A stretch of DNA of 64,000 nucleotides from an uncultured virus (IMG/VR IMGVR_UViG_3300037087_000281) (taxonomy: Duplodnaviria > Heunggongvirae > Uroviricota > Caudoviricetes), in IMG/VR virus record IMGVR_UViG_3300037087_000281; one strand, given 5' to 3'. The notes beneath the pieces were generated by a model. That model had not been told where the DNA came from, searched no databases, and was given only the letters and a program-made list of their open reading frames with translations. Positions 9,740-61,594 of the stretch are shown one piece after another. A program made the position numbers and the translations under genes. Within the stretch, counting starts at the first letter, position 1. The number at the start of each line of letters is the position of its first letter.

Positions 9740-10002
9740 AAATGCTTACGACGTTGTTGTTGGCTGATGCTGTGAAGAAGGGAGGTCCTGGTGGCGGCCC
9801 GCACCCGAACCCTGGCAGCGCCAGCCGTTCTGCCAACTTGAAGTCCAAGATTGCCAATGCCAGCGACAAGAAGTCGGATCACCTGGCAGCGGCAGCTGCT
9901 CACCAGCTGGCCAGCAAGAAGCATCTCGCTGCCGGCAACTTCAAGACGGCGGCGCTTCACGCGGGAAAGGCTGGAGTTCACGAAGAGGCTGCGAAAAGCT
10001 AA
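9736..10002 (+). CDS. Small basic Ala/His/Lys-rich protein
   Basis: AAAGGAG SD; KKGGPGGGPHP motif. Confidence 0.5.
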   Translation: MKMLTTLLLADAVKKGGPGGGPHPNPGSASRSANLKSKIANASDKKSDHLAAAAAHQLASKKHLAAGNFKTAALHAGKAGVHEEAAKS

Positions 10003-13377: not shown

Positions 13378-13379
13378 GC

Positions 13380-24405: not shown

Positions 24406-25116
24406 TCATGGTCGCAAACTTTGGTAGAAGGACCAGTCTGCGCCGAGGCGGGATTTCACATCGCCTTCCCATCGCGTGAACTCTGCTGCCCCGAACACTT
24501 TGGGGGAGTTGTTTCTCAGGTGGCTGATGCCTGTGTACCAGTCGGGAGACATGAATGCGGCTTTGTCGAGCCGTCCTGGCCCGCACACAAACGGGGTAGA
24601 TGCACCCACCTGGAGGGCGGGGAACGTAGACCGCGCCCAATAGTCCCGTGAATACATCAACGTCGCGGAGTAGAGGTAGCGGCCCGGCCCTCGGTAGCGA
24701 TACTGAAAAGAGTTTCCACTCGGGAGGTCATAAAAGATCGGAGCCTCTACCCCACAGATTTCGGCGTTGGCATCCCCCATGGCTGCTACTTGAAGTGACA
24801 ATCGTTCTGACTCGTACCAATCATCATCGTCCCAATGCGCGATTAGATCGCCTCGTGAATGCTTCACGCACCAGTTGCGCTTCGCTCCTAGGGTTTTGAA
24901 CCTAGAGTTTGGAACATATCGGAGGATGGAAACCTTATCGTTGTCGTCGGATGAGGCGGTTGCCCAAGATACCAAGGAATCGAACCTAGTTCCGTCATCT
25001 AAGATCAACAGTTCTTTATTTGGGTGCGTTTGCCGCAAGAAGTACTCTACCGCCTTCTTCATGAACTCGGGGCGGTCCCGGGTGGGCATGATGCAGCTAA
25101 CTAGCGGAAGACTCAT
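24406..25116 (-). CDS. Glycosyltransferase family 2
   Basis: PLVSCIMPTRDR...LILDDG...LGAKRN...AHWDDDDWY. Confidence 0.88.
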   Translation of the reverse strand: MSLPLVSCIMPTRDRPEFMKKAVEYFLRQTHPNKELLILDDGTRFDSLVSWATASSDDNDKVSILRYVPNSRFKTLGAKRNWCVKHSRGDLIAHWDDDDWYESERLSLQVAAMGDANAEICGVEAPIFYDLPSGNSFQYRYRGPGRYLYSATLMYSRDYWARSTFPALQVGASTPFVCGPGRLDKAAFMSPDWYTGISHLRNNSPKVFGAAEFTRWEGDVKSRLGADWSFYQSLRP

Positions 25117-25361
25117 GCTGATTCTCCTTTAACCACATTCAAAACTTCTTCAGGGTTCCCGCACCACTTGACGGATACGATGGGGGCACCGATCTCTATC
25201 AGGGCCTTCAACCTGGCGTGTGCCGCGCCGGAGAAACGGTTGCCAATGTCGGCAATGTCCACGTACCATAGCAGATCCTGGCTCTTCGCTTTCCGCGCTC
25301 CGCGTCCGTAGCGTTGCAGCGCGTTGTTTCTTGACGGAAGCCCGGTCGCGTCAACTATCAT
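25113..25361 (-). pseudogene. Displaced duplicate of the SF2 helicase 3' end
   Basis: GLPSRNNALQRYGRG...GNRF...RLKAL aligns with the C-terminus of 26199-27683. Confidence 0.75.
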
Positions 25362-26221
25362 CGCTTATTCTTTTTTCTCCAAATAGCCCAACGTTTTTTC
25401 CCAGCTTCACTTACTTTTCTACGAGTTTCTTTTGAGTGCTTGTACCCTAATGCGTTATGATTTCCTTGCCGGGCTAGACTAAGTTTTTCTTTGACTTCTT
25501 TGGTTCGTACTTTACCTTTATTTGCTTTGGAAATTTTCTCCCTAGTTTCGACAGAAAAGGTTCTCCCTCGTAGGGCATCGCTAAGCTTTTGACAGGTCTC
25601 AGGAGAACGTATGCGCCCCACCGCAGCATCGCGCATACGTTTTCTAGCTTCCTCTGAAGGATTGTGGCGCCCGAGGTGTGCTTCCCTTAATCTCTTTTTC
25701 ATTTCCGGAGTCGCCATAGTTTTGCGAATTTTTTCAGAAGTTTCAGGAGACCGTTTTCTTCCGAGATTCTTGCCTTTATTTCCCAGGCTTATTTTTTGAC
25801 GAGTTTCGGGGGAATGTTTTCTTCCTTTCTGTGCGGCACTAAGTTTGCTTCGAAAGGAAGTCGTTACAATGGCACGTACCCCTGCACTTATTTTCTTGCG
25901 GTCCTCTTCAGAGAATTTGTAGCCGACTGCTCCCTCTCCCCCTTCTGTCAAGTTATAACCGTTAGGAGTCATAGAGTTCATCAAGAAAATCCATATCTTT
26001 TCCATTGTGCTAAGTTGTGAGTTTGGCGCCTTCGCAAGAACGGAGAGAGTAAAACCATCTTGGGTGTATTTTCGGAGAGCATTAGCAAACAGTCGATTTT
26101 TGCTTTTGGAGTACTTTGCATCGTAAACATGCCCTCGCCAGCGCTTGGCTAACGGCCCAGTGGTTTTTCCTACATAGCACTTTCCGTTGATTTTGTTTTC
26201 AGCTAGGTATATCAGGCCCAT
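25358..26221 (-). CDS. GIY-YIG homing endonuclease with NUMOD3 repeats
   Basis: GLIY...CYVGKT; GYNLTEGGEG; repeated (H/R)SPETxxKIS; AT-rich relative to flanks. Confidence 0.9.
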   Translation of the reverse strand: MGLIYLAENKINGKCYVGKTTGPLAKRWRGHVYDAKYSKSKNRLFANALRKYTQDGFTLSVLAKAPNSQLSTMEKIWIFLMNSMTPNGYNLTEGGEGAVGYKFSEEDRKKISAGVRAIVTTSFRSKLSAAQKGRKHSPETRQKISLGNKGKNLGRKRSPETSEKIRKTMATPEMKKRLREAHLGRHNPSEEARKRMRDAAVGRIRSPETCQKLSDALRGRTFSVETREKISKANKGKVRTKEVKEKLSLARQGNHNALGYKHSKETRRKVSEAGKKRWAIWRKKNKR

Positions 26222-36392: not shown

Positions 36393-37199
36393 TCATGCTT
36401 GTTCCTCCTTGACGGTCACACTCTCGATGGGGTTGATGGCCGGGGTGACGATCCGACGACCGGCCTTCATGTCCGCCCGTTTCTTTTTTCCGTAGTTAGG
36501 AGAAGCTGTTCCAGTAGGCATGCAAAAGGTGCCAGTAGGTAGATTGACCGCATCTTCTTGAGTCCAACCGCGTTTCAAGCGTCCATAAATTTTGTGTATG
36601 TCGATGCCCTTGATACGTGCCCATTCGGCGCATGTTTTTGTTTCTCCATTGGCAGTAACGAAACGGGTAATCCCTCGATTCTCCATCTGCTCACTTCGGT
36701 TCGCCCATCGAACATTACCGGGCTCATAATTTCCGTTTCTGTTCGGCCAGAGATCAATTGTGTGCTGCGGAGTAGGTTTTCGCCCCATGTAAGATAAGAA
36801 TTTTCCGAAGTCTTTTCGCCACGAACCGAACACTGTTTTTCCACTTCCTCCATAGCGGTCGTATGCAATGTTTTTAGGGTCATAGCATCGTGAGCGCATA
36901 GCAGTCCAACTTTTGTATTCGGTACTAACTTCCGTGACGCATCCTCCGTGTTTTATATGACTGATTCCCATCTGGGATATCACGCACTGATGGCACTGGA
37001 TGGATTTCCCTCGCTTCAGCTCCGTGCCAGACTGATCAATCTTCCTGCCGCAATCACATTTACAGCGGAAGGTGGTCCTCCCCTTGACTACTCCAAGGCA
37101 TTTGCGAATTGTCAGTTTCCCGAACCGCGTACCTACTGCGATGATCAATTTGTTTGCCACGTTTAAGTTTCTCCCAATTAAATTCCCACTCCGCGCCAC
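36393..37199 (-). CDS. HNH-like homing endonuclease (start uncertain)
   Basis: CKCDCG; YKSWTAMRSRC...RYGG; NGNYEPGNVRWA; AT-rich. Confidence 0.75.
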   Translation of the reverse strand: MARSGNLIGRNLNVANKLIIAVGTRFGKLTIRKCLGVVKGRTTFRCKCDCGRKIDQSGTELKRGKSIQCHQCVISQMGISHIKHGGCVTEVSTEYKSWTAMRSRCYDPKNIAYDRYGGSGKTVFGSWRKDFGKFLSYMGRKPTPQHTIDLWPNRNGNYEPGNVRWANRSEQMENRGITRFVTANGETKTCAEWARIKGIDIHKIYGRLKRGWTQEDAVNLPTGTFCMPTGTASPNYGKKKRADMKAGRRIVTPAINPIESVTVKEEQA

Positions 37200-37795: not shown

Positions 37796-37870
37796 CCGTT
37801 TCACTCTGCGTTTGCACGGGCTTGTGACCGTTCCCGGCGGGTGATTTGCCTACCAGAAGCCGCATTACGG
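37796..37870 (-). ncRNA. Twister ribozyme A (type P1, with P3 hairpin)
   Basis: CCG-UAA-UGCG-GC-[hairpin]-CGG-UCACAAGC-CCG-UGCAAA-CGCA-GA-GUG-AAA-CGG. Confidence 0.85.
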
Positions 37871-38004
37871 GGATTGGATACCCCGCTAGGATGGCCCTTG
37901 CCGTCACCCCGCTCAGCTATCTCGCTCAGCTCGACTAGCTCCGTGCGGCTGAAGTACAACCGCTGGTCCGGGTCGGTGGTAAGCAGTCGTTGAATCTGTA
38001 CCAT
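37801..38004 (-). CDS. Small hypothetical protein whose 3' end overlaps twister A
   Basis: AAGGAGAGCAAAC SD, ATG 38004. Confidence 0.45.
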   Translation of the reverse strand: MVQIQRLLTTDPDQRLYFSRTELVELSEIAERGDGKGHPSGVSNPRNAASGRQITRRERSQARANAE

Positions 38005-38014
38005 TGTTTGCTCT

Positions 38015-38072
38015 CCTTCCCATCCGCTTTCCACCTCCCCGACTTTGGACGGGGCATCGGCGCGTTGGAAGG
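38015..38072 (-). ncRNA. Twister-like ribozyme E (variant, 3-bp P2)
   Basis: CCUUC-CAA-CGC-GC-CGAUG-CCCCG-UCCAAAGU-CGGGG-...-GCG-GA-UGG-GAAGG. Confidence 0.7.
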
Positions 38073-38130
38073 CCCGCCGTCCGGGTCTGAAGTGGGCGGC
38101 GAGTTCGTCCTCCCGTCGGTAGGACGGGCA

Positions 38131-38220
38131 CTAGGTCTTACGGGTGTTCTTCGCCCCGCAGTAGGGGCAGTTGCGGTAGCCGGTTACTTTCCGGCACTTG
38201 GTGCAGACTCTTATTGCCAT
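38131..38220 (-). CDS. 29-aa zinc-ribbon microprotein
   Basis: AAAGGAGAG SD; MAIRVCTKCRKVTGYRNCPYCGAKNTRKT*. Confidence 0.55.
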   Translation of the reverse strand: MAIRVCTKCRKVTGYRNCPYCGAKNTRKT

Positions 38221-38238
38221 TGACTCTCCTTTCTAATT

Positions 38239-38481
38239 TTAGGGTCTTGCAGTCTTCAGTGGGACGCCCTCGGCGAGGCATCCTTCCAGGTCCAGCGAGC
38301 GGGCGCTGTAGCTGAGGGCGTCCGGATGCCCGTCGGCCATCTTCTCGAACGCCACTTGGTTGTCCCGGCGGACGTAGAGGACCAGCTCGGCCTTGGTCCC
38401 GGTGTTGGCGACCACTTTCTCGCAAAGACCCACGGGGAGGATGGTGCCGGGCTTGCGCATCTGGACTTGGTAGCGGATCAT
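38239..38481 (-). CDS. Hypothetical protein
   Basis: AAGGAGAGCAAACC SD, ATG 38481. Confidence 0.6.
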   Translation of the reverse strand: MIRYQVQMRKPGTILPVGLCEKVVANTGTKAELVLYVRRDNQVAFEKMADGHPDALSYSARSLDLEGCLAEGVPLKTARP

Positions 38482-38504
38482 TGGTTTGCTCTCCTTTTTG
38501 ATTT

Positions 38505-38551
38505 CCACTCTGCGTTATGCGCGGGCTTGTGACCGCCGTTGGCCGCATTAC
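38505..38551 (-). ncRNA. Twister ribozyme B (core intact, P1 not evident)
   Basis: UAA-UGCG-GC-CAACG-GCGG-UCACAAGC-CCGC-GCAUAA-CGCA-GA-GUG. Confidence 0.8.
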
Positions 38552-38595
38552 AGTAGGACGAGCCGCTCGCCCGCCCTACGCATCACCTCCTGTGG

Positions 38596-39333
38596 TTAGT
38601 CGCTGAGTGTTACGGGTTGTCCCGTCTCGCGGTACCTGCGAATGATCTTGGCCTTGCTCTCCGGGGAGAGGCGCTCGAAGGCCTCCGTCATCTCCCAGTT
38701 GGTCTCCGTCGGCGTATGGCCTGCCTTGATGTCCTCCTGGATGCGCTTGAAATGCTCCGGCTCCCCGACGCTCATCAGCGAGAGGTCGAAGGTCCGCGTC
38801 TCATCCAACATGCGTACGGCGGGGGCGGGAGTGACGATGATGGATGATTGCCGCGCGGGGTCTTTAGCGTGAGCCAAGTCCTTCCAATGATCCGGATAGT
38901 TACATCCGCATTTGCATTTTTCTGGTAGAGATGCGGAGAACTTCTTGCTGGGCGGGTTGAACTTGATGGGAGCTGGAGGCTTGTTGCCATTGACGATGGG
39001 TGCGGGCGGTTTGCCGTTGGTCATGTCCCAGTAGATGCCGTTCGGGTCGACCTTTTTGCTCCGCGTGCTCGCGCTCCCGCTGTACCCGAAGGCGTGGTCC
39101 GCCTTGTCCGGCACCGGGGGGTTGTACTTCAGACTACCGACCGGAGGCTTGGGGAAGGCCTCGGCGGCCTCGGCCAGATGCGGGCGGATCGCGTCGAGGA
39201 GATCGGAGACCTCGACGGCGGCGTTGGAGCAGTTCTCCCATTCACCCTCGCGCGCAGCGGTGATCGCACAAGACAGGTGTGAGGCGATGATCTTGAGGCG
39301 ATGGGAAGCTTCGGATCGTGTTATCAATCCCAT
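38596..39333 (-). CDS. Hypothetical protein with short tandem NGKPPAPI repeat
   Basis: 245-aa ORF with GGAGG SD. Confidence 0.55.
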   Translation of the reverse strand: MGLITRSEASHRLKIIASHLSCAITAAREGEWENCSNAAVEVSDLLDAIRPHLAEAAEAFPKPPVGSLKYNPPVPDKADHAFGYSGSASTRSKKVDPNGIYWDMTNGKPPAPIVNGNKPPAPIKFNPPSKKFSASLPEKCKCGCNYPDHWKDLAHAKDPARQSSIIVTPAPAVRMLDETRTFDLSLMSVGEPEHFKRIQEDIKAGHTPTETNWEMTEAFERLSPESKAKIIRRYRETGQPVTLSD

Positions 39334-39627
39334 CTAACCCCTCCCGTGAATGCAGAGGCACTCGCTGCCCGAACTGCAAGCCGGGCAGGTGCACTGGTCA
39401 TCATCCCGATAGTGACGCTTGGAAGATGCGGGACGCGCCGAGGGCTTCACCGCGCAGATGAAAGTGGTCGCGTCGTGCCAGAGGACCCGCTCCACGATCT
39501 CGCTCTTTGTCTCTCCGCTCCGCTTGGAGACGATAACGGTCGTGCCGACGGCCACGCTGCTCGGTGAGTTGAATGTCACGCGGATGCCCCAGTCTCCGCT
39601 CTTCAGTTTGGTGTATGTTGCGGTCAT
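39334..39627 (-). CDS. Small protein with Cys-rich tail, paralog of 43403-43729
   Basis: ATYTKLKSGDWGIR...DDDQCTCPACSSGSECLCIHGRG. Confidence 0.7.
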   Translation of the reverse strand: MTATYTKLKSGDWGIRVTFNSPSSVAVGTTVIVSKRSGETKSEIVERVLWHDATTFICAVKPSARPASSKRHYRDDDQCTCPACSSGSECLCIHGRG

Positions 39628-39639
39628 AAGGTTTGCTCT

Positions 39640-39700
39640 CCTTTTCCATCCGCTTTCTGCCCTCCGGACTTTGGACCGGACGTACGGCGCGTTCAAAAGG
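39640..39700 (-). ncRNA. Twister-like ribozyme F (variant, 3-bp P2)
   Basis: CCUUUU-GAA-CGC-GC-CGUACG-UCCGG-UCCAAAGU-CCGGA-...-GCG-GA-UGG-AAAAGG. Confidence 0.7.
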
Positions 39701-39746
39701 AATATGGGGAACGGGAGGCTGACCCTGCCCGTCCCCTTGGTTCGGC

Positions 39747-40526
39747 TTACTCGTGGGCGACGTAGCGCCGCTCGCCAGCCTTGTTCTTGACGGCGTCGAT
39801 CTTCACGCCCTTCGCGCGGGAGTTGGACACGAAGCTCTGCGCGCTGGGGACCGTCCACCCGCCCGCGGCGGCGATCTCCTCGATAGTCGCGCCGGTCTTC
39901 CGCGACATCAGCGCGAGGGCGGCGGCTCCACCACCGGCCTTCTTCGCGGCCTTCGGGGCGGCTTTGGCGGTCTTCTTCGCGGGCGGGGCTGCCTTTTTTG
40001 CGGTAGGCGCGGGTTTGGCCGCCTTCTTTGCGGCGGTCTTCTTAGAGGCTCCGGCGGCGATCGGCGGAGCGGCGTTCACGGGGGTGTTAACTTCGGCGTT
40101 GGAATCCATTTTGATTTGTCCTTTTTCAGAAATTTTCAAGCACTGGTTGGAGCAGTACTCACCGCTCCTGCCTCTCCAGCAGAGGGTCACTTGCTTACCG
40201 CATCCGCGGCGGTCGCAGAACTTTCGGGCGATGCCCGAGGTTCCAAAATCTTCGGCGGTCACTTCCATCTTCGTCTCCTCGGCGAGGATTTCGCACGCGG
40301 CGTGGTACACGCGGCCGTCCCGCGTGCGCATCGCGCCGTCCAGCCTGACGAGGTGCTCGCAGACGCAGCACTCGCGTACGGAGCTCCCCTTCTTCCCGTC
40401 CTTCGCGTCGACGAAGTCGTTGATGCACTTCCGGGAGCAGAACTCGAGGTCGCTCTTGAAGAGCTTGTACGGAACCGCTCCGACGGCGTTCGGGCACCCC
40501 TGCATCGAGCAGGCCTTGTGGGTCAT
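39747..40526 (-). CDS. Zinc-finger + Lys/Ala histone-like + DUF3489-like wHTH protein
   Basis: AAGGAGG SD; FCSRKC, YCSNQC; KKAAK repeats; GATIEEIAAAGGW. Confidence 0.65.
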   Translation of the reverse strand: MTHKACSMQGCPNAVGAVPYKLFKSDLEFCSRKCINDFVDAKDGKKGSSVRECCVCEHLVRLDGAMRTRDGRVYHAACEILAEETKMEVTAEDFGTSGIARKFCDRRGCGKQVTLCWRGRSGEYCSNQCLKISEKGQIKMDSNAEVNTPVNAAPPIAAGASKKTAAKKAAKPAPTAKKAAPPAKKTAKAAPKAAKKAGGGAAALALMSRKTGATIEEIAAAGGWTVPSAQSFVSNSRAKGVKIDAVKNKAGERRYVAHE

Positions 40527-40535
40527 CGTCCTCCT

Positions 40536-40590
40536 TCCCCATCCGTCTTCTCTCACCCTCGGCTTTGGACGAGGCGTCGGTGCGTTAGGA
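40536..40590 (-). ncRNA. Twister-like element G (degenerate variant)
   Basis: UCC-UAA-CGC-AC-CGACG-CCUCG-UCCAAAGC-CGAGG-...-ACG-GA-UGG-GGA; mismatches in P2 and T2. Confidence 0.5.
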
Positions 40591-40620
40591 GAGAGGGGCC
40601 TTTCGGACCCCTCTCGATTC

Positions 40621-41616
40621 TCAGGCGGAGTACGTCTTCGCGCCACCTGCGTTGGAGGCGTTGATGACGATGCCTTTCTTGCGGGTGTTGGACACGAAGC
40701 TCTGGAGGGATCCGAGCGTCCAGCCGGTCGCGGCGAGCAGCGAGTTGACGGTCGCGCCGCCGGGTTGCCGCATCAGCGCGAGGGCGGCGGCTCCCTTGTC
40801 TCGCGGGAGCGCCCCGTTGGGGGCCACGCGGGCGGCGCGGTTCCCAGAGGCGCGCGAGGCCTTCGCTCCGGCGGCGGCCACCGGCTTGCCGACAGGCTTC
40901 ATGACTTTATCCGACCCGGCCGCCCACGCGTAGACCGCATTGAGCACGTTCGGGAGGGTCTCCATGAACTTGTTGCCGTCGAATGCCTGCTCACCGTTGA
41001 CGTCCGTCGCGATGGACACAAATCGTGCGACGGTGGTGGCCTCGGCCAAGATGGTCTTCAGCGGAGGTTCGCCGACCATCAGGTTGAGCTCCGTGCGAGG
41101 CACCAGGATTTCACCCTCCAGGAACTCACGGTCGGCGTTGAACGTCATCCGGAAGTTAACGCCGAAGCTTTTGAAAGCGTCGTTGAAGTTGGCGAGGACC
41201 CGTTGGACGTTGGTGACGTTTTGCCCGGGAGCAACCGCATCATCTACTTTCGGTAGGCTCTTGCCGCTCCAGATCTGCTCGTAGAGGCGGATGGCCTTCT
41301 CCAAGAACGTGGCCTTCTCCTGCGGATACGGGGTCGAGTCGCCGACGCCCTTGACCTTTACGGCCATGTCGTAGGACTTCTGCTGTGCGGGGTTGAGCGC
41401 CGCTTGGTAGAGCAGTGGGCTGGGGCCGTTGGCCGGGCAGATTGCCTCCGCGTACCACTCGTGCGCCAGCTTCAGGCTGGTTAGCCGGTCGACCGACATC
41501 CACTCGTATGCTGCCGTCAGGCCGGCAAGGTTCAGCGTGGGGACCGCCGCGACGATGGCCGCCGGGGGCGCATATCCGGCGTAGGTGCTTCGCCGTCCGT
41601 AGTTTCTTCGTGCCAT
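40621..41616 (-). CDS. Hypothetical protein with C-terminal DUF3489-like wHTH
   Basis: AALALMRQPGGATVNSLLAATGW; AAGGAGAGCAAACC SD. Confidence 0.65.
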   Translation of the reverse strand: MARRNYGRRSTYAGYAPPAAIVAAVPTLNLAGLTAAYEWMSVDRLTSLKLAHEWYAEAICPANGPSPLLYQAALNPAQQKSYDMAVKVKGVGDSTPYPQEKATFLEKAIRLYEQIWSGKSLPKVDDAVAPGQNVTNVQRVLANFNDAFKSFGVNFRMTFNADREFLEGEILVPRTELNLMVGEPPLKTILAEATTVARFVSIATDVNGEQAFDGNKFMETLPNVLNAVYAWAAGSDKVMKPVGKPVAAAGAKASRASGNRAARVAPNGALPRDKGAAALALMRQPGGATVNSLLAATGWTLGSLQSFVSNTRKKGIVINASNAGGAKTYSA

Positions 41617-41634
41617 GGGTTTGCTCTCCTTTGT

Positions 41635-41696
41635 GCGAGGGGCTTGAGACCTCGCTTGCCGCATTACGGCACGTCTCTCGACGTTCCGCTCTCTGC
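41635..41696 (-). ncRNA. Twister ribozyme C (circularly permuted, P5-type)
   Basis: GCA-GA-GAG-CGG[hairpin]CCG-UAA-UGC-G-GC-AA-GCGAGG-UCUCAAGCC-CCUCGC. Confidence 0.8.
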
Positions 41697-42673
41697 TAGA
41701 CCGATGCCGGGGGAAGGCACAATCTGTGCACTGCCTCGACGAACTTCGTCTCGAACGCGGCTTCCGTGTTAACCACAACGCACTCCCCGCCGAGCGCCGC
41801 GCAAGCCGCCTTCAACGCGTCGTTGGGGTTCTCGTCGCCGATGTGGATGTAGTCGAGGATGATGCCGGACTGCTTGAGCACCGGCACCCATTCGGGGAGG
41901 ACGTTCGTGCCGCTGTCACCGCCGTCAGAGACGACAATAAAGTGATGAAGGCCAACCGAACTGGGGTGCTTGCGGCAGCACTCGACGCCTGCACGGATAG
42001 ACGCCATGATGTCTGTCCCGCCGGAGTTGACGCTGTCCATGCCGACCTGGATTCGGTCAACCACTGCGCGGACCTCGTCCGCCGTGCCCGAGTCGAAGAC
42101 AACCTTTGCGCCAGCCCCGAAGGCGATCACCGCAAGGGAAGACTGTGGGAACTTGGCGAAGCGTGCTTCGATCTCCTGCTTGGCGAGCTTGGCGACCAGC
42201 TCGATGCGGGAGGGCGGCTGCATGTGCGGCTTGCTCCAGTCGATCGCGACGTGGAAGCTGCCGATCAGGTCGTGCTGGATGACGCGGGTCTTGATCTCCT
42301 CGTCTGTGACCGTGAAGGTTGGCGGCATGCCGGGAACCAAGGGGTCGATCATCTTGATGATTTCCTGCTGTTCCCACCCGAGGTCTTGGCCGCTCATCAC
42401 TACCGCGATGGCGTCGGCGACTTTCGCGCGGATGCTTGCCAGCCTCTCGGGCGTCCAGAGGTACTGGTCGGCGAAGCCCTTCTTGTTCTTGTCGGCGGCG
42501 ATCCGCTCGCTCATGCTGCCGGACACGTCGAAGCAGAAGACCAGCTTGGCGAACTCAGAATAAACATCTCCAAGCTTGCGAAGGACCGAGTTGCCGTTGG
42601 TTTGTAGGGATTCAGTTTTTCGAAGAACGATATCATTCGTCCCTTTGAAGATCATGCTGTTGTCAAGTTTCAT
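41696..42673 (-). CDS. von Willebrand factor A domain protein
   Basis: FCFDVSGSM (MIDAS), GGTDI, IVVSDG. Confidence 0.85.
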   Translation of the reverse strand: MKLDNSMIFKGTNDIVLRKTESLQTNGNSVLRKLGDVYSEFAKLVFCFDVSGSMSERIAADKNKKGFADQYLWTPERLASIRAKVADAIAVVMSGQDLGWEQQEIIKMIDPLVPGMPPTFTVTDEEIKTRVIQHDLIGSFHVAIDWSKPHMQPPSRIELVAKLAKQEIEARFAKFPQSSLAVIAFGAGAKVVFDSGTADEVRAVVDRIQVGMDSVNSGGTDIMASIRAGVECCRKHPSSVGLHHFIVVSDGGDSGTNVLPEWVPVLKQSGIILDYIHIGDENPNDALKAACAALGGECVVVNTEAAFETKFVEAVHRLCLPPASV

Positions 42674-43308
42674 TTTGCTCTCCTTTTTCCAACCAGTCGG
42701 CATCGCTTTGCTTGAGCAGCGCGCCGCTCTGGAGTCCATCTTAATTTGCTGTTCTTGATTCGATTCTCTCTGACTTCTGGGTCTTTCCAACTTTCGCTGG
42801 TAGTCTTAGCCAACTTCTTTTTGGTTGCTTTGGAAAGCTGATGCCCAGGCTGAAACGTTCCGGCATTAGGCCCGTGCCGTAAAACTCCTTCTCGTATCTT
42901 TTGCTTCTGGGCTTCTGGAAGCGGCTTTCCTTTTCGCTTGGCGGCGGAGATCATTCCTGCGCGCCGCATCGACGCTTGACGCTCTCGGAGGATTTTTCCT
43001 TTGAGTCTCTTCCCCCGGCGTTCGGCGCTCCACTTCTGTTTTTGCGCTTTGCTGTGGTAGTGCTTGCCGATATGATGGATGCGACTGTGCTCGCTCTTTG
43101 TCATCAGTTGAAGATTGCTGATCCGGTTGTTCATGATGTTTTCATCTATGTGGTGAACCACCTCGTCCTTTCGGAGGAGGCGTTTGATGCGGTTTATCAT
43201 CTTCAACCGGTGCTGCGCGATCTTGGTTCCGTCCGGGAGGAGAGGGTGGCCATAAACTTTGACCATCAAATAACCTTCGCCTTCATATCCAGCCCGCTTC
43301 GTCTTCAT
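42670..43308 (-). CDS. HNH homing endonuclease with NUMOD3-like tail
   Basis: QHRL...EVVHHIDENIMNNRISNLQLMTKSEH; own GCTATAAT and AGGAGG upstream. Confidence 0.88.
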   Translation of the reverse strand: MKTKRAGYEGEGYLMVKVYGHPLLPDGTKIAQHRLKMINRIKRLLRKDEVVHHIDENIMNNRISNLQLMTKSEHSRIHHIGKHYHSKAQKQKWSAERRGKRLKGKILRERQASMRRAGMISAAKRKGKPLPEAQKQKIREGVLRHGPNAGTFQPGHQLSKATKKKLAKTTSESWKDPEVRENRIKNSKLRWTPERRAAQAKRCRLVGKRRAK

Positions 43309-43344
43309 ATACGCCTCCTAGCTTTATTATAGCCCGGAGAATGC

Positions 43345-43399
43345 GGACGGGCTTGGAACCGTCCAGCCGCATTACAGGGCCGAAGCCTTGTCCTCTGCG
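43345..43399 (-). ncRNA. Twister ribozyme D (circularly permuted, P5-type)
   Basis: CGCA-GA-GGA-CAAGGC(UUCG)GCCCUG-UAA-UGCG-GC-U-GGACGG-UUCCAAGC-CCGUCC. Confidence 0.88.
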
Positions 43400-43402
43400 C
43401 CG

Positions 43403-43729
43403 TCAGCCGCGCCCGTAGATGCAGAGGCACTCGCTGCCGGAGCTGCACTGCGGGCACGTGCATTGGTCATCATCGTTGCGGTATCGGCGACGCCCCGAGT
43501 AAGAGAATGCTGATGCCGTCCGCGCGATGGAGCAGAGACTGACGGTCTGCCCGCTCTTGCTGTCGGTTCCGGTCCAGAGGACCTTGCTGATGGTTTCTGT
43601 CTTGGATGTTCCATCCCGCTTCGTGACTGTGACGGAAGCTCCCGCCGAAAGTTTGCCGGCCGCTCGAATGCCCCACGATCCGTCGCGGAGCTGAGTATAC
43701 GTTGCTTTCGCTGTTGTTGCTGTACTCAT
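43403..43729 (-). CDS. Small protein with Cys-rich tail, first gene of early operon
   Basis: ATYTQLRDGSWGIR...DDDQCTCPQCSSGSECLCIYGRG; AAGGAGAGCAAAC SD. Confidence 0.7.
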   Translation of the reverse strand: MSTATTAKATYTQLRDGSWGIRAAGKLSAGASVTVTKRDGTSKTETISKVLWTGTDSKSGQTVSLCSIARTASAFSYSGRRRYRNDDDQCTCPQCSSGSECLCIYGRG

Positions 43730-43750
43730 ACGTTTGCTCTCCTTGAAAAT

Positions 43751-43815
43751 CTGTCCCGCCCGTTTTCTTCCCCCGCAACTACGGATGCGGCGTCGGCACG
43801 TTCGACGGGCGACAG
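43751..43815 (-). ncRNA. Twister-like element H (variant)
   Basis: GAA-CGU-GC-CGACG-CCGCA-UCCGUAGU-UGCGG-...-ACG-GG-CGG within CUGUC/GACAG stem. Confidence 0.5.
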
Positions 43816-44299
43816 CGGCGATTAGCGGCTGCGCCCTGATTTCGTTTGGTGTTGTTTCGATTTGTTTTTTGCGTCATCGGGCCGTGGGATCCCCGTTTCA
43901 ATCTCGGGTGGCCTTCGCCGTTCTTGTGGATAACCTAATCACCTTACGTAACGCCATGCCAAGCTCTATGCCATTCGACTCGTGCGTTGACGAGTGCCGG
44001 TTGAGAATCTCCAATCCGTGGTGGATAAAGCTGGAGTCTTACGTTGGCGGCGCATTGCCGCCCCGGCGTGGACCGTGGGTTCCTGTGATGACGGGGGTTT
44101 AGGTTTACCGTGGGAACTATTCAGATTTCAAAAATCTCTTGGAGACGCTTGAGGCCGGCGTTGGTGACGTGAAGATCTGTAGCGAACATCGTCTCGACGT
44201 TCCTGCTTCACCTGCCACCGGGTGTTCCACCCGAGGTTTCAAGCCGCTTGCTATCGCCGCTTTCCGCCCGCCGGTCTTTTTGATTACTCCGTGCTGCCT

Positions 44300-44370
44300 T
44301 ACTTCTTTAATATATACTCGTTTTTGTGGAAAGTACACAAGTTTTTTGAATTATTTTCAGATTATTTTCC
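44300..44370 (-). promoter_or_regulatory. Probable strong sigma70-type early promoter with AT-rich UP region
   Basis: AAAATAATCTGAAAATAATTCAAAAAACTTGTGTACTTTCCACAAAAACGAGTATATATT in a GC-rich genome, upstream of the small-gene operon. Confidence 0.6.
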
Positions 44371-44609
44371 GGGAGACCAAAGGCCGGAGGGCGGCGCGGA
44401 AACCGCGTATATATAGATGGCGCGGCGCGAGTCATGCGGACCTCCAGGAGGCGTCTCCGAGGGAATCCCATAGGAAACGGTTAGGCGCGCCGCCGCGATC
44501 CATCCTGGGGCTCCGCAGGAGGCCGGGTGAACCGTTCCGTCAAGTTCTGACTCCGAGATCGTTGATTTTTAACAAGTTCTCGATCCATGTGAAAACTCAA
44601 ACCTTTGGT

Positions 44610-45110
44610 TTAAGTCCGTTGAGAGAATCGGCGGCCCCACTCCGCTATCAGGAGCGCTTCTGCCCTGTTATGATCTCGTTTTCGGTCCAGATCCGCGCAG
44701 GATGGGAACAGCTGGAGCGCCCGGACGATGGAGGCGTTCTTGTCGGCCCCAGCAGGAATGAGCAAGTCCTTCTTCCACCGCGCGGGCTCGACTCGCGTAA
44801 CCGGGACGCGGAGCACGGCGAGGATGCCAAGCCAGAGACCCAGGCCCATGCCCTGAGAAAACCCGCCGACGCTCCCGGTGCGGGGCATCGCGTGAAGGTT
44901 CTCGATGGTGACTTGGACATCACCTCCGGCGGACTTGACGATCGCTTCTATTAGCGTCGCCATCGGCCCGTCGCAGTAGGCGGTGCGGCTTTTCTTGCCA
45001 GTCTTGACGACGACTGTGGGGATGTCTTGGAGGGAGACGATCCGACCTTTCGTATCGAGAGCGGCGACAGCCCCGGTGCAGCCACAGTCGATCCCAATGT
45101 GCAATTTCAC
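44610..45110 (-). CDS. RuvC-like Holliday junction resolvase
   Basis: IGIDCGCTGAVA...TIEN...PARWKK...NRAEALLIA. Confidence 0.85.
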   Translation of the reverse strand: MKLHIGIDCGCTGAVAALDTKGRIVSLQDIPTVVVKTGKKSRTAYCDGPMATLIEAIVKSAGGDVQVTIENLHAMPRTGSVGGFSQGMGLGLWLGILAVLRVPVTRVEPARWKKDLLIPAGADKNASIVRALQLFPSCADLDRKRDHNRAEALLIAEWGRRFSQRT

Positions 45111-56039: not shown

Positions 56040-57791
56040 TCACTCGGCGATCGCTTCGGGCATCAAGTCCTCCCACCGCTTGAACTCGACCTCTCGCTGC
56101 TTCTCGCGCCATCGAGACAAGAACTCCTCGACGGGTCCGCCCTCGTAGTCCGTCAAACTCCCCATGCAGAAGCCCGCAGACGCCTCGGCGATCAGCGGAA
56201 CGTGGAGCTTGATCCCGAACTCCCGCTCGGAGTAGGCCGCTGCTCCCTCCTGCATGAGGTGCTTGCACTGCTTGTACGCTTCTGGGAGGTCTCGCAAGTG
56301 GACTCGGAAGACCAGCGCGTCGTGGATCTCCATCAAGCATTTTTGGAGAAGCCCGTAAGTCCGCGACTTCATCTCCAGGAGGGCGAGCGCGATGAGGATT
56401 AACCCATGCGCCGAGCCTTGAATCGGACTGTTAACCGCTTGGTTCGCCCAGAAAGTCTTGCGCCCGTGCTCGTTGGTCTTGTTGATGTCCCGGCGAAACC
56501 CGTAGAGCGTCTCGACGAATCCTTCATTTTCCGCCTGGTCGTGCATCTTCTGAATGAACGCGGCGACTCCCGTGTACGTCTTGAAGTACTTGTCGTAGAG
56601 CTTGACGAGCCGCTTGTAGGTGATCCCGGTCATGTCGGCGTTCTTCCCGTCGATGGCCCTGATCTTGGCGACCACGTACGGGTAGAGGGACTCCCTGCCG
56701 AGGCCGAAGATGACGCCAAAGTGCATGTTCTTCACCATCTTGCGGAGGTTCTTCTCGGCTTTGATCCTCTCCACGGGCCACCCCGTGAGGGAGTTCCCGA
56801 CGAGGCAGTGGATGTCCTGCCCCGTGTTGAACTGGGAGATGAGGAGCCGGTCCCCGGATATCTCCGCGAGCATCCTTACCTCGATCTGACTGTTCTGCGT
56901 GACGACGCCGCAAGCCAAAACATAGTTGTGATCCGGCTCCACCGTTATCGTGAACATCGGTTGAGTTCCTGCCGGTTCGATGGCGATGATCTTGTGATTT
57001 AATCCGCGCTTTATTTTCTTTACGAGCCGATTAGAGTACCCGTAACTAAGGCCGAAATGATCAGCTACTTTTGAAGCTGTCCAGTTGTCGACGCATACAA
57101 ACTGATGTAGGAACTGCATGTCTTCATCAGACAGTTTGCTGTTTGGGTTCCCTCGCCCGTTGTAAGAACGGCGCTTTTTAACGCCTTCTCTAAGCGCCTT
57201 GATCCTGACCGCATGATCTTGTTTCGCGTAGATGACTCTCATGTGTTCCGCTCGATGATCGTACCTCAACTTGTACTCTAAATTTCCCGGAGAGTTGTTG
57301 GTAGGATCATCGTCTTTATGATGAACTTCATGCCCTTCTGGGCAAGGTCCCAAATAAGCTTCGGCCACCAAATGATGCTCGTAGTCATATATGAAATGAG
57401 ACCTGGAGTACCACGTCTTGTAACCTCCTCCGTTAGATCCCGGGCGACAAGGCACCATCCGTTCCCCGATCCGTAACTCTTCTGTGGTTTTGACTACAAC
57501 TCCGGAAGTTTTTCTCGCTTGTACTTTTTCCAGAGTGGGCCATCTGTGATCATAGGAAGCGATGACGGACTCATCGTTGTCGAACGTTACTTTATACGCT
57601 TTTTTCGGACGGACCGTCTTAATGCGTGTTACTGCGCCCCATTTTATTCTTCCATCTCTGTAAGTAAGCACGGGGGTGCCGACGCTTAAGCTGCTTATCT
57701 TTACTGCCCCATTCAATGTTTGTATGAGGGTGTCCGGATGCAAGCACTGGTCGGCAGCGAGGAACACCCAGAGGTCATCGAGATCCTTCAC
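56040..57791 (-). CDS. DNA polymerase family A, C-terminal (palm/fingers) subunit, intein-containing
   Basis: GTG coupled to upstream stop; motif A ADQ|SQIEVR, motif B RKMVKNMHFGVIFG, NSPIQGSA, motif C IHDAL. Confidence 0.88.
   Translation of the reverse strand: MKDLDDLWVFLAADQCLHPDTLIQTLNGAVKISSLSVGTPVLTYRDGRIKWGAVTRIKTVRPKKAYKVTFDNDESVIASYDHRWPTLEKVQARKTSGVVVKTTEELRIGERMVPCRPGSNGGGYKTWYSRSHFIYDYEHHLVAEAYLGPCPEGHEVHHKDDDPTNNSPGNLEYKLRYDHRAEHMRVIYAKQDHAVRIKALREGVKKRRSYNGRGNPNSKLSDEDMQFLHQFVCVDNWTASKVADHFGLSYGYSNRLVKKIKRGLNHKIIAIEPAGTQPMFTITVEPDHNYVLACGVVTQNSQIEVRMLAEISGDRLLISQFNTGQDIHCLVGNSLTGWPVERIKAEKNLRKMVKNMHFGVIFGLGRESLYPYVVAKIRAIDGKNADMTGITYKRLVKLYDKYFKTYTGVAAFIQKMHDQAENEGFVETLYGFRRDINKTNEHGRKTFWANQAVNSPIQGSAHGLILIALALLEMKSRTYGLLQKCLMEIHDALVFRVHLRDLPEAYKQCKHLMQEGAAAYSEREFGIKLHVPLIAEASAGFCMGSLTDYEGGPVEEFLSRWREKQREVEFKRWEDLMPEAIAE
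56892..57746 (-). mobile_element. Intein (285 aa) with HNH endonuclease in polymerase motif A
   Basis: Starts CLHPDT, block B ASYDHRW, VHHKDDDPTNNSPGNL, ends HNYVLACGVVTQN followed by Ser. Confidence 0.9.
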
Positions 57792-57943
57792 TCGCGCGTC
57801 ACCGTCCACGACGCGCCCTCCAGGAGCGCCGTTACGTCCTCTTGAATTAGCTCTATGACCTGGGCGTCGGACATGGATGCGAACTGCTCCTCCGTGGCCC
57901 AGAAGTCCTCTAACTCCTTGGTGACCGTGACGGAGACGCGCAT
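57788..57943 (-). CDS. Small acidic hypothetical protein (51 aa)
   Basis: MRVSVTVTKELEDFW...; coupled to neighbours on both sides. Confidence 0.5.
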   Translation of the reverse strand: MRVSVTVTKELEDFWATEEQFASMSDAQVIELIQEDVTALLEGASWTVTRE

Positions 57944-58329
57944 CAGTCCCCCTCCCGGCGGTACGAGAACGGCTCCCGCATTCTGGAACCGCTGTGCCCG
58001 AGGTAGGTGCTGGTGTCGCTGCGCTCGTGGGGCCGGGTGGCACTCTCCGCCGCCGTGTTCCAGTGGAACAGCGGGTTCTCCGGAGCGCGGGTCTCCAACC
58101 AGGCGTAGTTGAAGAGGTTGCGGAGGTTCTCGGAGTTGCCGGTCCGCTCGTACTTCTCCAGCTCCTTCCGCATCCGCGTCATGTACTTCATCCTCCTGCT
58201 CGGACCGCCGTGCGGGGCCTCGTAGCGCGGGTACCCGAAGGCGAGGCGATTGGCGGCCTGCTGGACGAACTCGATGAAGTGCGGCCAGTCGTGACGGAAC
58301 TTGCCGCTGCACCAGACGGTGAACTCCAT
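57943..58329 (-). CDS. Hypothetical protein
   Basis: GGAGG SD; NRLAFGYPRY...YERTGNSENL. Confidence 0.6.
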   Translation of the reverse strand: MEFTVWCSGKFRHDWPHFIEFVQQAANRLAFGYPRYEAPHGGPSRRMKYMTRMRKELEKYERTGNSENLRNLFNYAWLETRAPENPLFHWNTAAESATRPHERSDTSTYLGHSGSRMREPFSYRREGD

Positions 58330-59108: not shown

Positions 59109-59774
59109 TCACCGCATCTTACTCATAGCCGCCGTCTGTTTCGTTAGTGGCTCAATGTCATCGAACAGTATCGGAATCTTTACCTTCAGTTCAGCCAGTA
59201 GTGGAATGGTCACCTGTCGCATCTGCGGATGGGCTTCTTTGGTCGTCCGCATGATCATAATGTGCCGAAGATTGCGGAGGTTAGTCGTCGTGATTATCCT
59301 GCTGGCAAGGGCGTTGGGAAAGACAGAGCGGGCAATCTGAGGAGCGCATCCCTCGTTGATTAACTTCTGGTACCACTTCTCGGCGTCCTCGATCCCACAT
59401 ATCCACGAGGCCTCTCTCGCTACCTCGTCTGGCTCCCCGTTGAAAGGCGTGATAAAGCTAGGGGGCATCTTCTTCTGGTAGTTGACAAAACGCGTACTTT
59501 CCTGTGTGAAAGCGCACAAGCGGTGCCGCACCCACTCGTGGGTAATGCCGCGGTCCACCACCATGTCGATGGTAACCGAGGCGTGCTCCACGATGCTCCA
59601 GTCCCCGTGGCCCAGAACCACGGTTTCGATGAATCGTCTCCAGGAGTCCTCGGTCTGCGCTTCTTCAGAGCGGTGGGAGATCCGCCCGCACCACTCGATC
59701 TTCTTCAGCAGCTTGACGCCGGCCTCCAGGTCGGGGACGTCCATCAGCCGCGCGTACGGCGTCACTATGTTCAT
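59109..59774 (-). CDS. thyX: Flavin-dependent thymidylate synthase
   Basis: SIVEH; RGITHEWVRHR...QESTRF; ARSVFP; AHPQMR. Confidence 0.92.
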   Translation of the reverse strand: MNIVTPYARLMDVPDLEAGVKLLKKIEWCGRISHRSEEAQTEDSWRRFIETVVLGHGDWSIVEHASVTIDMVVDRGITHEWVRHRLCAFTQESTRFVNYQKKMPPSFITPFNGEPDEVAREASWICGIEDAEKWYQKLINEGCAPQIARSVFPNALASRIITTTNLRNLRHIMIMRTTKEAHPQMRQVTIPLLAELKVKIPILFDDIEPLTKQTAAMSKMR

Positions 59775-61594
59775 TTCTCCTCCAAAGCCAATCTCCACCG
59801 GCGGTCCGACACCATCAAGTTCTGCATCATCGGGTTCCCGTGCGTATTCTGGAAATTGAGGATGCCCTCGGCCTCGGCCCGGTCCCCCTTGCCGCTTCGC
59901 AGCCTCCCCGTGACCGCGCCAACTAACCACCATATAGTTCTAAGTTCGCCATCGTGGAGTTCTGCGCTCCTCGCGTACCCGGCGAGGTAAGTCGACGCGA
60001 TCTTGCCGATAGTCCTACGCTTCATGACTAATTCCAACACCGGGTCTCCGGTCTCAGCGAGGAGAAGTTCCAGGATCTCCTTCCCGGTCCCGCGCGTGAC
60101 AGTCCCCCTCCTGTCCGTCGGCGTCGGCAGCTTCAAGACGTCGTAGAGCAGGTGGGCCACCTGCTGCGAGGAGTCGCACTCGAAGCCGGGATCGTCGGCT
60201 AACTGCCTGAGATGCCTATCTAACTCTGCGATCATCTTCGGGACTGCCTCCGACGCTTTCTTCCAGTTTTCCCAATCAAGGATCGGCCCGCGCCGCTCCA
60301 TCTTGTCGAGAGTCATCCCGGCCCTTACGTACACTTTGGCGAGAGCTTGATTGACTTGCGGGCTAAACCTCTCTTCCAGTCGCTTCGTCACGTCACAGTC
60401 TCCGCAGTTGCGCAAGACGAGGAGATCGAGCGGCACGTTGGCATAGTTGACCGATCCGAAAGTGCCGTCGCCGCCCGCATGTTCGATCACGGTGTCTTTG
60501 TAGTCTCCGAACTCGGGGAAGAACAGGTATGTGAGATTCTCTAATCCGCAGCTACGAAGAAAAGAATGCCGTAGGAACGTCCCGTACATCGTGTCATAAT
60601 CGTACCCTCGCAATTTGGCTCCGAGGTATATCGCGCTCGCGGCCGAGTCATATGACCCGTTCTGGAGAGTCTTCGGAATCGATACGTCTTCTAACAAGAG
60701 TTTCAACCGCCGACGTAAACTCTCACGCGTCTTCAAATCGGAACTCGCTTCAGGATGATCGATGACTACGGACCAAGCGCGGCCCGTCCAAGTCTTCCAG
60801 TTCCCTATGACGCGAAACTTTCCGACTCCGAATCCCGCCAGTAGCATCACTTTCTTCCCATTGACTGTTCCATCTTCTACGTCATAACTGACTCGCCGTC
60901 CGGCCTTTGCTTCGGCCTTGATGATCTTCTCCATCGCGTCGAACGTCTCGACGGACTCTACCGCTTCGTAGCGCCTCGACTTTATGTAACCCCATCGACC
61001 GGGATTCTTTAAGATCGTTGCGACGGCCCGCAGCTTCTCCTTCCAGACGTTGAACTCCCATCCAGCCGCTTCTCCTCTTCGCAGAAGGTATGACGGGTGC
61101 TGGAGATAAACACAATACGCATTCCACGGTTCGTGCCAAAATACCGGATGATCTTTCTTTAATGCTTTCCCGAGAAGTTGTTCTCCCGCTATATCCCCGA
61201 GTATCACGTGAACGACGGCCTCTCCGCGGTTAAGGTCGAGAGCTTCCGAGTTGTAAACGGCACAGCACTGGAGTTCCCGCTTCGTCGGGTCGCGCTCTTG
61301 GCCATCATCGGCAGGCCAGCACCTCACTCCCGCGTTCTGCACGTCGAAGTGGCCCCTCGTTAATCCGACCTCCGACAGCGCCTCCCACAAGAGCTTACCG
61401 GAGCTCCCCGACAGCTCCAAGCCCTTCGCGTTGTCGATCTTCCCCGGCCACGCTCCCCAAAGCATGGCCCGTCTGCCCTTGACGCGCGATAGTCCCTTGA
61501 TCTTCTTGACTCCGGCTATACCGTCGAGGGGGCAATGCGAACACCCCAAGACTTCGCCTCGGCGGGTCACCGGCTGGTTAAACAGATTTTTCAC
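59771..61594 (-). CDS. DNA polymerase family A, N-terminal subunit: UDG4-like domain + 3'-5' exonuclease + thumb
   Basis: CSHCPL...G.SGKLL...RC.P...HPSYLLR; YDVED, QNGSYD, DTM; QVAHLLY; STYL; TGRLRS...NFQN. Confidence 0.85.
   Translation of the reverse strand: MKNLFNQPVTRRGEVLGCSHCPLDGIAGVKKIKGLSRVKGRRAMLWGAWPGKIDNAKGLELSGSSGKLLWEALSEVGLTRGHFDVQNAGVRCWPADDGQERDPTKRELQCCAVYNSEALDLNRGEAVVHVILGDIAGEQLLGKALKKDHPVFWHEPWNAYCVYLQHPSYLLRRGEAAGWEFNVWKEKLRAVATILKNPGRWGYIKSRRYEAVESVETFDAMEKIIKAEAKAGRRVSYDVEDGTVNGKKVMLLAGFGVGKFRVIGNWKTWTGRAWSVVIDHPEASSDLKTRESLRRRLKLLLEDVSIPKTLQNGSYDSAASAIYLGAKLRGYDYDTMYGTFLRHSFLRSCGLENLTYLFFPEFGDYKDTVIEHAGGDGTFGSVNYANVPLDLLVLRNCGDCDVTKRLEERFSPQVNQALAKVYVRAGMTLDKMERRGPILDWENWKKASEAVPKMIAELDRHLRQLADDPGFECDSSQQVAHLLYDVLKLPTPTDRRGTVTRGTGKEILELLLAETGDPVLELVMKRRTIGKIASTYLAGYARSAELHDGELRTIWWLVGAVTGRLRSGKGDRAEAEGILNFQNTHGNPMMQNLMVSDRRWRLALEEK

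Follow-up and report, generated by a model that had tools for sequence, protein, structure and literature searches.

Eight twister-class ribozyme motifs at the gene junctions of an uncultured phage operon: a candidate self-processing polycistron

The early mRNA of phage T7 is cut between genes by the host RNase III, which acts at double-stranded sites and leaves 5'-phosphate and 3'-OH ends. Among self-cleaving RNAs, the twister class reportedly goes back to Roth et al. in 2014, and Rfam represents it by the families twister-P1 (RF03160) and Twister-P5 (RF02684) of clan CL00120. In prophages, multiple hammerhead ribozymes flank single genes or short gene blocks, and the processing of long phage transcripts was proposed as their function (Perreault et al., 2011; PMC3088659); hammerheads in native constructs of about 2 kb cut at all sites in vitro (PMC3088659). 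A 2019 review adds that bacterial ribozymes cluster together and near phage genes, with processing of polycistronic RNA suggested for both hammerheads and twisters, and that the role of self-cleaving ribozymes in bacteria and phages is still largely open (PMC6765202). A synthetic system, pRAP, is built from units of a stem-loop, a twister, a ribosome-binding site (RBS) and an open reading frame (ORF), the stem-loop having been added because cistrons released without a 3' hairpin were poorly expressed (PMC9872166). The present analysis concerns a 64,000-nucleotide stretch of DNA (the window) from an uncultured virus of the Caudoviricetes (IMG/VR record IMGVR_UViG_3300037087_000281), in which eight twister-class motifs, lettered H to A in the 5' to 3' order of the minus strand, are found between positions 37,796 and 43,815, on the same strand as the co-oriented phage genes at whose boundaries they lie.

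Between about 43.8 and 37.8 kb, the minus strand is best explained as one operon of small accessory genes within the replication arm of the phage. With a probability of about 0.72, this operon is a self-processing polycistron, cut by the eight twisters into short, hairpin-capped messages. As the long transcript is synthesized, each ribozyme would fold and cut at its N^AA site, releasing pieces of 429, 1708, 1079, 893, 1144, 483 and 200 nt that carry one or two genes apiece. Each upstream piece would end in a stable hairpin with a 2',3'-cyclic phosphate, the hairpin being a separate stem or, in the type-P5 form, the ribozyme's own P1; each downstream piece would begin with a 5'-OH on the compact ribozyme fold, followed by a common RBS. 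The likely gain would be a set of insulated and evenly translatable messages whose stability could be set separately, and for which no nuclease of host or phage would be needed. We infer the single long RNA, its cleavage in vivo, and the effects of cleavage on stability and translation.

In common with the early mRNA of T7, the locus would give a long phage transcript cut between genes into mRNAs that end in hairpins; here, however, the RNA would cut itself, and the ends would be 5'-OH and cyclic phosphate. The self-processing reading draws on the layout of the junctions, which is that of pRAP, with the same order of parts and an RBS of identical type after each twister (PMC9872166). pRAP is engineered, T7-driven and repeats one twister sequence, whereas the phage has three twister architectures and some two-gene units. 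As with the prophage hammerheads, several self-cleaving ribozymes flank genes of phage origin and the suggested outcome is gene-length mRNAs, but the ribozyme class is another one, and eight copies fall within 6 kb as against the tandem and triple arrangements tested there (PMC3088659). The regular hairpin-ribozyme-RBS cassette seen here is not described for hammerheads in the available part of that paper.

In our search of the accessible literature, no paper described a phage operon with twisters this densely arrayed; what Roth 2014, Weinberg 2015 and Felletti 2017, which lay outside its reach, report on clustered twisters may bear on novelty. An earlier note on this DNA, which knew of no described operon with such a density of twisters, overstated the novelty of the arrangement, since clustered hammerheads flanking phage genes, with a proposed role in transcript processing, were reported in 2011 (PMC3088659) and such processing has been suggested for bacterial twisters (PMC6765202). 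The arrangement is already known in phages and is not a new kind of element. The same note had interpreted the array as a transcript that cuts itself into units of one or two genes; the elements do divide the operon into such units, and the interpretation is partly supported, being right in kind and unproven in action. What is noteworthy lies in the details, namely the mixed architectures, a sub-threshold subclass, a variant (H) with U.G in place of A.A, an overlap of P1 with the Shine-Dalgarno sequence, and cassette polymorphism. The locus also represents a compact natural test case, in which eight sites and three architectures are combined with a regular unit matching a synthetic design that was reached independently.

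Directly observed at the locus are the motifs and their covariation, the catalytic residues, the hairpins, the repeated RBS and an absence of terminator-like sites between the genes. At the Rfam gathering thresholds, the 64-kb window contains a single match, to Twister-P5 at 43347-43399 on the minus strand (element G; 49.7 bits against a cut-off of 37.6). When the threshold is relaxed to E<=10 between 36500 and 45500, five twisters are found: G (E 3.4e-8) and F (36.4 bits, 8.9e-5) with RF02684, A (43.8 bits, 3.2e-7) and C (36.8 bits, 3.3e-5) with RF03160, and D with twister-P1 (24.3 bits, 0.12). Element F is thus 1.2 bits short of its cut-off, and A, C and D reach 24-44 bits where the twister-P1 threshold is 67.2. 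Over the entire window at E<=10 there are 11 matches, consisting of the same five twisters and six unrelated weak ones (E 0.22-3.8), with no twister match outside 37.8-43.4 kb. Elements B, E and H have no Rfam match at E<=10.

Cmsearch was also run with a custom model (R1), whose seed comprised B, D and E together with four copies from metagenomes. The seed members match by construction (B 81.3, D 77.3 and E 69.8 bits); element H, not among them, reaches 54.9 bits (E about 1e-14). With filters off, the next-best score between 30 and 50 kb is 14.7 bits. The DNA repeat families D3 and D4 likewise identify B, E and H as sequence relatives of D, with H 65-71% identical to B. The assignment of the elements to the twister class, as first made from the sequence, is upheld by Rfam matches for five of the eight and by the R1 scores of B, D, E and H. 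Judged from their sequences, these last four constitute a twister subclass with a U-CCA-AAG-Y loop that the Rfam thresholds miss. Because those thresholds miss most copies, standard annotation would under-count arrays of this kind. A loose home-made descriptor was unspecific, giving 15 matches where 9.2 were expected from shuffles, and its plus-strand match at 36489, inside a minus-strand gene, is due to chance. A ninth element near 44257-44392, suggested by repeats D8 and I20, was ruled out, there being no 5' half and no R1 match with filters off.

By architecture, two of the eight elements are type-P5 (F and G), two have the type-P1 order and lack a closing P1 (A and C), and four belong to the subclass (B, D, E and H). 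All eight minus-strand elements reported in the earlier note are present, at or within 1-5 nt of the positions given there, and the cut sites that it predicted are identical to those counted independently from the Rfam and R1 alignments. Element H (43748-43810), a divergent member of the subclass with P2 CGU/ACG and a P4 of 5 bp, has its predicted cut at 43803^43802. It is followed by the permuted twister G (43347-43399; cut 43374^43373) and by F (41637-41697; cut 41666^41665), which begins on the stop codon of a gene for a vWA-domain protein. G had been described as deviating from the common layout; it is instead the best Rfam match, and both G and F are of the circularly permuted type-P5 form. 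Element E (40531-40594; cut 40587^40586) and element D (39638-39701; P1 CCUUUU/AAAAGG; cut 39694^39693) are subclass twisters, as is B (38012-38074; P1 CCUUC/GAAGG; cut 38067^38066). Between D and B lies C (38502-38554; cut 38550^38549), of type-P1 order without P3 and with the P1 columns of its RF03160 alignment unpaired. The last element, A (37798-37871; cut 37867^37866), also has the type-P1 order, in this case with P3. The description of the elements as lying at gene junctions is correct in general and fails for A, which in this window is crossed by a 67-codon ORF.

In twisters, the G immediately after P2' serves as general base (G45 in the O. sativa ribozyme, G48 in env22) and the A that follows the cut site as general acid (A7 in O. 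sativa; PMC6154101). Both residues are retained in all eight elements, the roles themselves coming from that paper. The cleavage site N^AA is directly 5' of P2 in every copy, and N-1 is most often U (five copies), otherwise G (two) or C (one); the general-base G is directly 3' of P2' in every copy and is followed by A in all except H, where G is found. The P4 loop matches U-NNN-A-A-G-Y exactly in 7/8, the H loop being U-CCG-U-A-G-U, and P4 is 4-7 bp long. P2 has 3-4 bp in seven copies, with a compensated U-A pair in H; that of E consists of 2 bp and a C.A. P1 is present in B, D, F and G and reduced to 3 bp in E and H. Elements A and C lack it and have instead a local hairpin that finishes at the cut or at most 3 nt away. 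The elements resemble the twister class in N^AA, P2, P4 with its U-NNN-AAG-Y loop, the three-pair pseudoknot, the general-base G, in having both type-P1 and type-P5 connectivities, and probably in the two-pair pseudoknot, whose first pair varies. They depart from typical twisters in that seven of the eight fall under Rfam gathering, in the P2 (CGC/GCG), first-pseudoknot (T1) triplets (CCA/UGG) and G.U or A.C first pair of the second pseudoknot (T2) of the subclass, in the local upstream hairpin that A and C have instead of a closing P1, and in the U.G that replaces A.A in H.

T1, which joins the loop triplet to the three nucleotides following G-A, is Watson-Crick paired in all eight window copies and in three of three relatives, with seven distinct triplet pairs. 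The pairs agree with those listed in the earlier note: CAC/GUG in A and C, CUC/GAG in F, UCC/GGA in G, CCA/UGG in B, D and E, and CCG/CGG in H. Those of the relatives are CAC/GUG in the copy of A in the nearest virus record (G001), CUA/UAG in the homologue of F in L013, and CCC/GGG in the fourth copy in L022. T2, in which the two nucleotides following P2 face the G-Y of the loop, reads G-C and C-G in A, C, F and G, G.U and C-G in B, D and H, and A.C and C-G in E.

The subclass is defined by P2 CGC/GCG (CGU/ACG in H, CGC/ACG in E), the U-CCA-AAG-Y loop, and a UGG triplet after G-A; in H, the loop triplet CCG is matched by CGG. Relatives were sought with a pattern that fixed the letters of P2, the loop and the triplet after G-A and left P1, P4 and the linkers free, and it matched 4 places in viral contigs and 28 in those of metagenomes. 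By eye, 11 loci have a P4 helix and 17 do not; R1, applied afterwards, scored the former at 53-84 bits and the latter at 20.3 at best, and the 17 were set aside as chance matches. The resulting alignment (A4; 22 rows, 18 of them distinct, with both pseudoknots written in) has standard pairs in 94.6% of cells, compared with 80.5% in shuffles and 32-46% when the partners are slid, figures to be read with the caveats that the alignment was fitted to the model, that the pattern fixed the T1 and loop letters of the metagenome rows, and that one row is weak junk. Changes on both sides of a pair occur in 12 of 18 pairs, and the covarying pairs include all five of P1 and four of the five of P4. Of five measures compared with 500 shuffles, four (the percentage paired, both tallies of two-sided changes and the covariation score) are attained by none, and the fifth, the number of further pair types, is attained by 20. 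The third T1 pair of the subclass is AU in 15 rows, CG in one and GC in one. At the first T2 pair (columns 14 and 38), 10 rows have G.U and 7 have A.C, with G-C and A-U never occurring; the alternation resembles an isosteric wobble exchange more than it does damage.

Predictions of activity can be drawn from CHiTA, a survey of about 2,600 natural twisters in which approximately 94% of those tested were active (PMC11662667). Imperfections in P1, P2 and P4, every N-1 base, and G.U wobbles in the pseudoknots were all tolerated (PMC11662667), and P1 is conserved yet dispensable for twisters (PMC6154101, PMC11662667). These tolerances extend to the lack of P1 in A and C and to the G.U found in B, D and H, and on this basis elements A, B, C, D, F and G should cleave. 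The same survey reports that most non-wobble mismatches in T2 strongly lower cleavage, and that a G at the trans A.A contact lowers it significantly (PMC11662667). Cleavage of H may therefore be inefficient, as may that of E to a smaller extent, and this raises a different account of the array, in which only some of the eight sites are cut, with H and perhaps E being non-cleaving folds, either decayed copies or structured elements that protect 5' or 3' ends. We regard this account as possible, if on balance doubtful. In its favour are the sequence changes themselves, H having U for the loop A and G for the A after the general base, and E having both A.C and C.A, together with the drop that CHiTA records for both kinds of change. 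The two altered residues of H, however, correspond to A34 and A49 of env22, which pair with each other (PMC6154101), so that the change reads as a joint replacement of A.A by U.G. H also keeps a compensated P2 pair (U-A) and a T1 pair (G-C), which would be unexpected of a dead copy. As for E, its A.C is found again in six further members of the subclass (L022 a-d, L026 and L030) and its C.A in one (L022 d), all of them non-identical metagenome copies. Natural variants such as the P1/Shine-Dalgarno overlap, the A.C wobble and U.G for A.A bear on how much the twister fold tolerates.

The order of parts at the junctions is stop codon, stable hairpin, ribozyme, RBS block and ATG. When the 45 nt upstream of each cut are folded with RNAfold, the energies are -14.2 to -22.1 kcal/mol, compared with a background mean of -10.2 (sd 4.5) over 1500 windows of the same strand; all eight are below the mean, five of the eight are in the lowest 5%, and 0-13 nt are unpaired at the 3' end. 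The hairpin ahead of H (43807-43836; -19.6 kcal/mol, lowest 2.8%) ends 4 nt before the cut, as does that ahead of E (40591-40615; -20.6 kcal/mol, lowest 1.7%), and that ahead of D (39707-39736; -22.1 kcal/mol, lowest 0.9%) is 13 nt away. In two cases the hairpin stands in place of P1: at C it ends 3 nt before the cut (38553-38579; -21.5 kcal/mol, lowest 1.1%), and at A it is the last 20 nt before the cut, paired through the N-1 U (37867-37886; 45-nt window -18.1 kcal/mol, lowest 4.5%). In the type-P5 copies, F and G, the internal P1 of the ribozyme would itself be the 3'-end hairpin of the upstream fragment. None of the junction hairpins has a U-tail, and a terminator scan found no site at any junction; the sole minus-strand site in the array is inside the vWA gene, and the total of 16, where 13.9 were expected, does not exceed chance.

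Downstream of the ribozymes, a near-identical RBS block, AAGGAGAGCAAA followed by 0-5 nt and ATG, precedes seven operon genes between 37718 and 43748 on the minus strand (motif scan, repeat family D1), the motif starting at 43742, 42683, 41629, 39641, 38494, 38016 and 37726. In B and D, the P1 3' strands GAAGG and AAAAGG continue directly into AGAGCAAAC, and P1 overlaps the Shine-Dalgarno sequence in L019, L026 and L030 as well. Since the 3' strand of the subclass P1 is part of the Shine-Dalgarno sequence, uncut RNA would hide the RBS and cleavage would free it, the short 5' strand of P1 departing with the upstream piece. The main role of such an arrangement would be to couple translation to processing, rather than to set stability; it is compatible with a self-processing polycistron, and as an account of what the array is for we consider it unlikely. 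In nested partition-function folds, the probability that the Shine-Dalgarno hexamer is unpaired rises after the cut from 0.47 to 0.74 in B, from 0.25 to 0.51 in D and from 0.08 to 0.30 in E, with changes of at most 0.07 in C, F, G and H. These folds ignore pseudoknots, however, and give a computed hint only; the Shine-Dalgarno sequence of A also opens (0.20 to 0.46), although no overlap exists there. Furthermore, P1 is just 3-6 bp, and the overlap is absent from four of the eight window elements and from the L017 and L022 groups.

Several results weigh against a polycistron cut at all eight sites, beginning with the mismatches of E, which are of kinds that mostly lower cleavage in CHiTA, and the loop AAG to UAG and GA to GG changes of H, which place a G at a contact where G is detrimental. 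The Rfam gathering score is reached by one element of eight (G), this score being an annotation threshold and not a structural feature, and the caveats on the alignment belong here as well. With regard to transcription, no run on record as RNA contains this DNA, and a promoter consensus scan gave one site (44593-44565) where 3.0 were expected, leaving the most promoter-like stretch of the leader, near 44305-44340, unflagged. The ribozymes are confined to one operon of the 64-kb window, so processing is not a general need of the phage. Lastly, the predicted fragment from B to A would carry an ORF, itself a truncated remnant, without a stop codon, the stop lying past the cut site.

Another fate for the excised pieces would be circularization into mRNAs by an RtcB-type ligase, since the ends left by twister cleavage have the chemistry of RtcB substrates. 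We consider this very improbable: no RtcB or other RNA ligase family is found among the 67 window ORFs scanned against Pfam, and terminal hairpins make sense for linear RNAs. In addition, circular or spliced products of clustered hammerheads were sought and none was found (PMC3088659).

Comparison with related DNA reveals how the junctions vary. The nearest virus record, G001, has 42% of sampled words in common with the window and is 99-100% identical to it except in two replaced segments, each of which borders a ribozyme module. The first holds the HNH gene, inserted immediately after G and absent from L012, from G001 and from a contig of run X4. Around this insertion (42556-43340), the first ~117 nt of the adjoining vWA gene also differ, as in homing with co-conversion. 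The other is a cassette of a 29-aa gene, element B and the 67-codon ORF, which in G001 is replaced by a different 75-codon gene without a ribozyme; B also has no counterpart in L012. The right breakpoint of this cassette is at about 37899, just upstream of the hairpin of A. The 67-codon ORF (37801-38004, minus strand), with its UGA stop inside GAGUGA, matches a family of 99-104 aa proteins over only its first ~36 aa, and it reads through ribozyme A because the first third of a family protein has been fused to the A module. The G001 copy of A has a different P3. These sequence comparisons suggest that modules come and go at boundaries on the ribozyme side, although two cases make no rule. Comparison of the region with the DNA contigs of four runs gave strain and cassette differences only, with no usable ribozyme variants.

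Such polymorphism is suggestive of blocks of ribozyme and RBS that serve mainly as portable junctions, through which cassettes are exchanged, duplicated or lost between related phages, cleavage being secondary or neutral. The replaced segments beginning or ending beside ribozyme modules, the remnant ORF fused at the breakpoint before A, and the resemblance of H with its gene and D with its gene to a duplicated module (families D2-D4) are all consistent with this. The compensatory changes that keep each helix and T1 paired, however, point to the RNA fold, and not the identity of the DNA, as the target of selection; moreover, the copies are 65-80% identical as DNA, which is poor for homologous recombination, and the polymorphisms number two. 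Exchange as the main function is therefore a distant prospect in our estimation. A broader proposal would make the hairpin-twister-RBS block an evolved, portable 'gene socket', in which the cut both caps the upstream message and unmasks a Shine-Dalgarno sequence hidden by P1, translation of a gene thus awaiting its release, the blocks mark cassette swaps between phage strains, and H is a natural variant active with its U.G; we hold this conjunction to be rather improbable.

The arrangement has parallels elsewhere. L013 encodes a vWA protein of 41% identity, and its gene is followed at the same place by a type-P5 twister and a comparable RBS. In the metagenome contig L022 (978-2229, plus strand), four subclass twisters lie within 1.25 kb, one at each of four successive junctions of small genes and each with a preceding hairpin. 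Within the window, the pair of DUF3489 genes and the 108- and 97-aa paralogues that follow H and D suggest, on the similarity of their sequences, that gene-plus-ribozyme modules were duplicated. The adjacent DUF3489 genes (39747-40526 and 40621-41616) have a common C-terminal domain and a 24-nt stretch that is identical in DNA.

The operon genes, all on the minus strand, are small and mostly without a family, and include a vWA protein, two DUF3489 proteins, zinc ribbons and a pair of paralogues. A gene-poor leader of ~800 nt (43811-44609) is upstream of element H and has, on direct reading, an AT-rich, promoter-like stretch near 44305-44340 that is possibly the start of operon transcription; Rfam has no match in this leader. 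The first gene (43403-43729) encodes 108 aa with no family and is a paralogue of the 97-aa gene at 39334-39627 (repeat family D2). It is followed by the HNH endonuclease gene (42670-43308; 212 aa; PF13392, E 3.9e-9, and several PHROGs) and the gene for the vWA-domain protein (41696-42673; 325 aa; PF13519, E 5e-6). Of the two genes with a C-terminal DUF3489, the first encodes 331 aa (40621-41616; PF11994, E 1.9e-7), and the second a Cys-rich protein of 259 aa (39747-40526; PF11994, E 9.1e-7, just under the cut-off). Two genes of 97 and 245 aa (38596-39627) have no ribozyme separating them, and two small genes (38131-38481) encode 80 aa and a 29-aa zinc ribbon.

Its gene content (Pfam and PHROGs) identifies the window as all or much of a phage genome. 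The major head protein, a lambda-like tail tube protein and the tape-measure protein are encoded on the plus strand. The long minus-strand replication arm encodes a DNA methylase, a split family-A polymerase with Hint and HNH inserts, MazG, SSB, a RecA-like protein, a clamp loader, SbcCD, a Holliday-junction resolvase and several helicases. The ribozyme array is within this arm, flanked by the resolvase gene (44610-45110) and an HNH gene (36393-37199), and since replication genes are found on both sides of it, the label 'early' is a fair guess rather than a result. None of 50,697 phage records was matched by the 6.2-kb region in a blastn search.

A few further features of the window can be recorded. 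The family-A DNA polymerase is split such that UDG and the N-terminal part of the polymerase are in one ORF, with Hint, HNH and the C-terminal part in the other (56040-58043 and 59771-61594, both minus strand). Additional genes of homing-endonuclease type, a GIY-YIG gene with NUMOD3 and an HNH gene (25358-26221 and 36393-37199, both minus strand), bring the total for the genome to at least four. The capsid and tail-tube genes are separated by a cluster of genes for glycosyltransferases and methyltransferases (7465-14225, plus strand), and another glycosyltransferase gene is found past the tail genes (24406-25116, minus strand). Finally, a conserved protein of 677 aa encoded in the window has tblastn matches in very diverse phages at about 51% identity.

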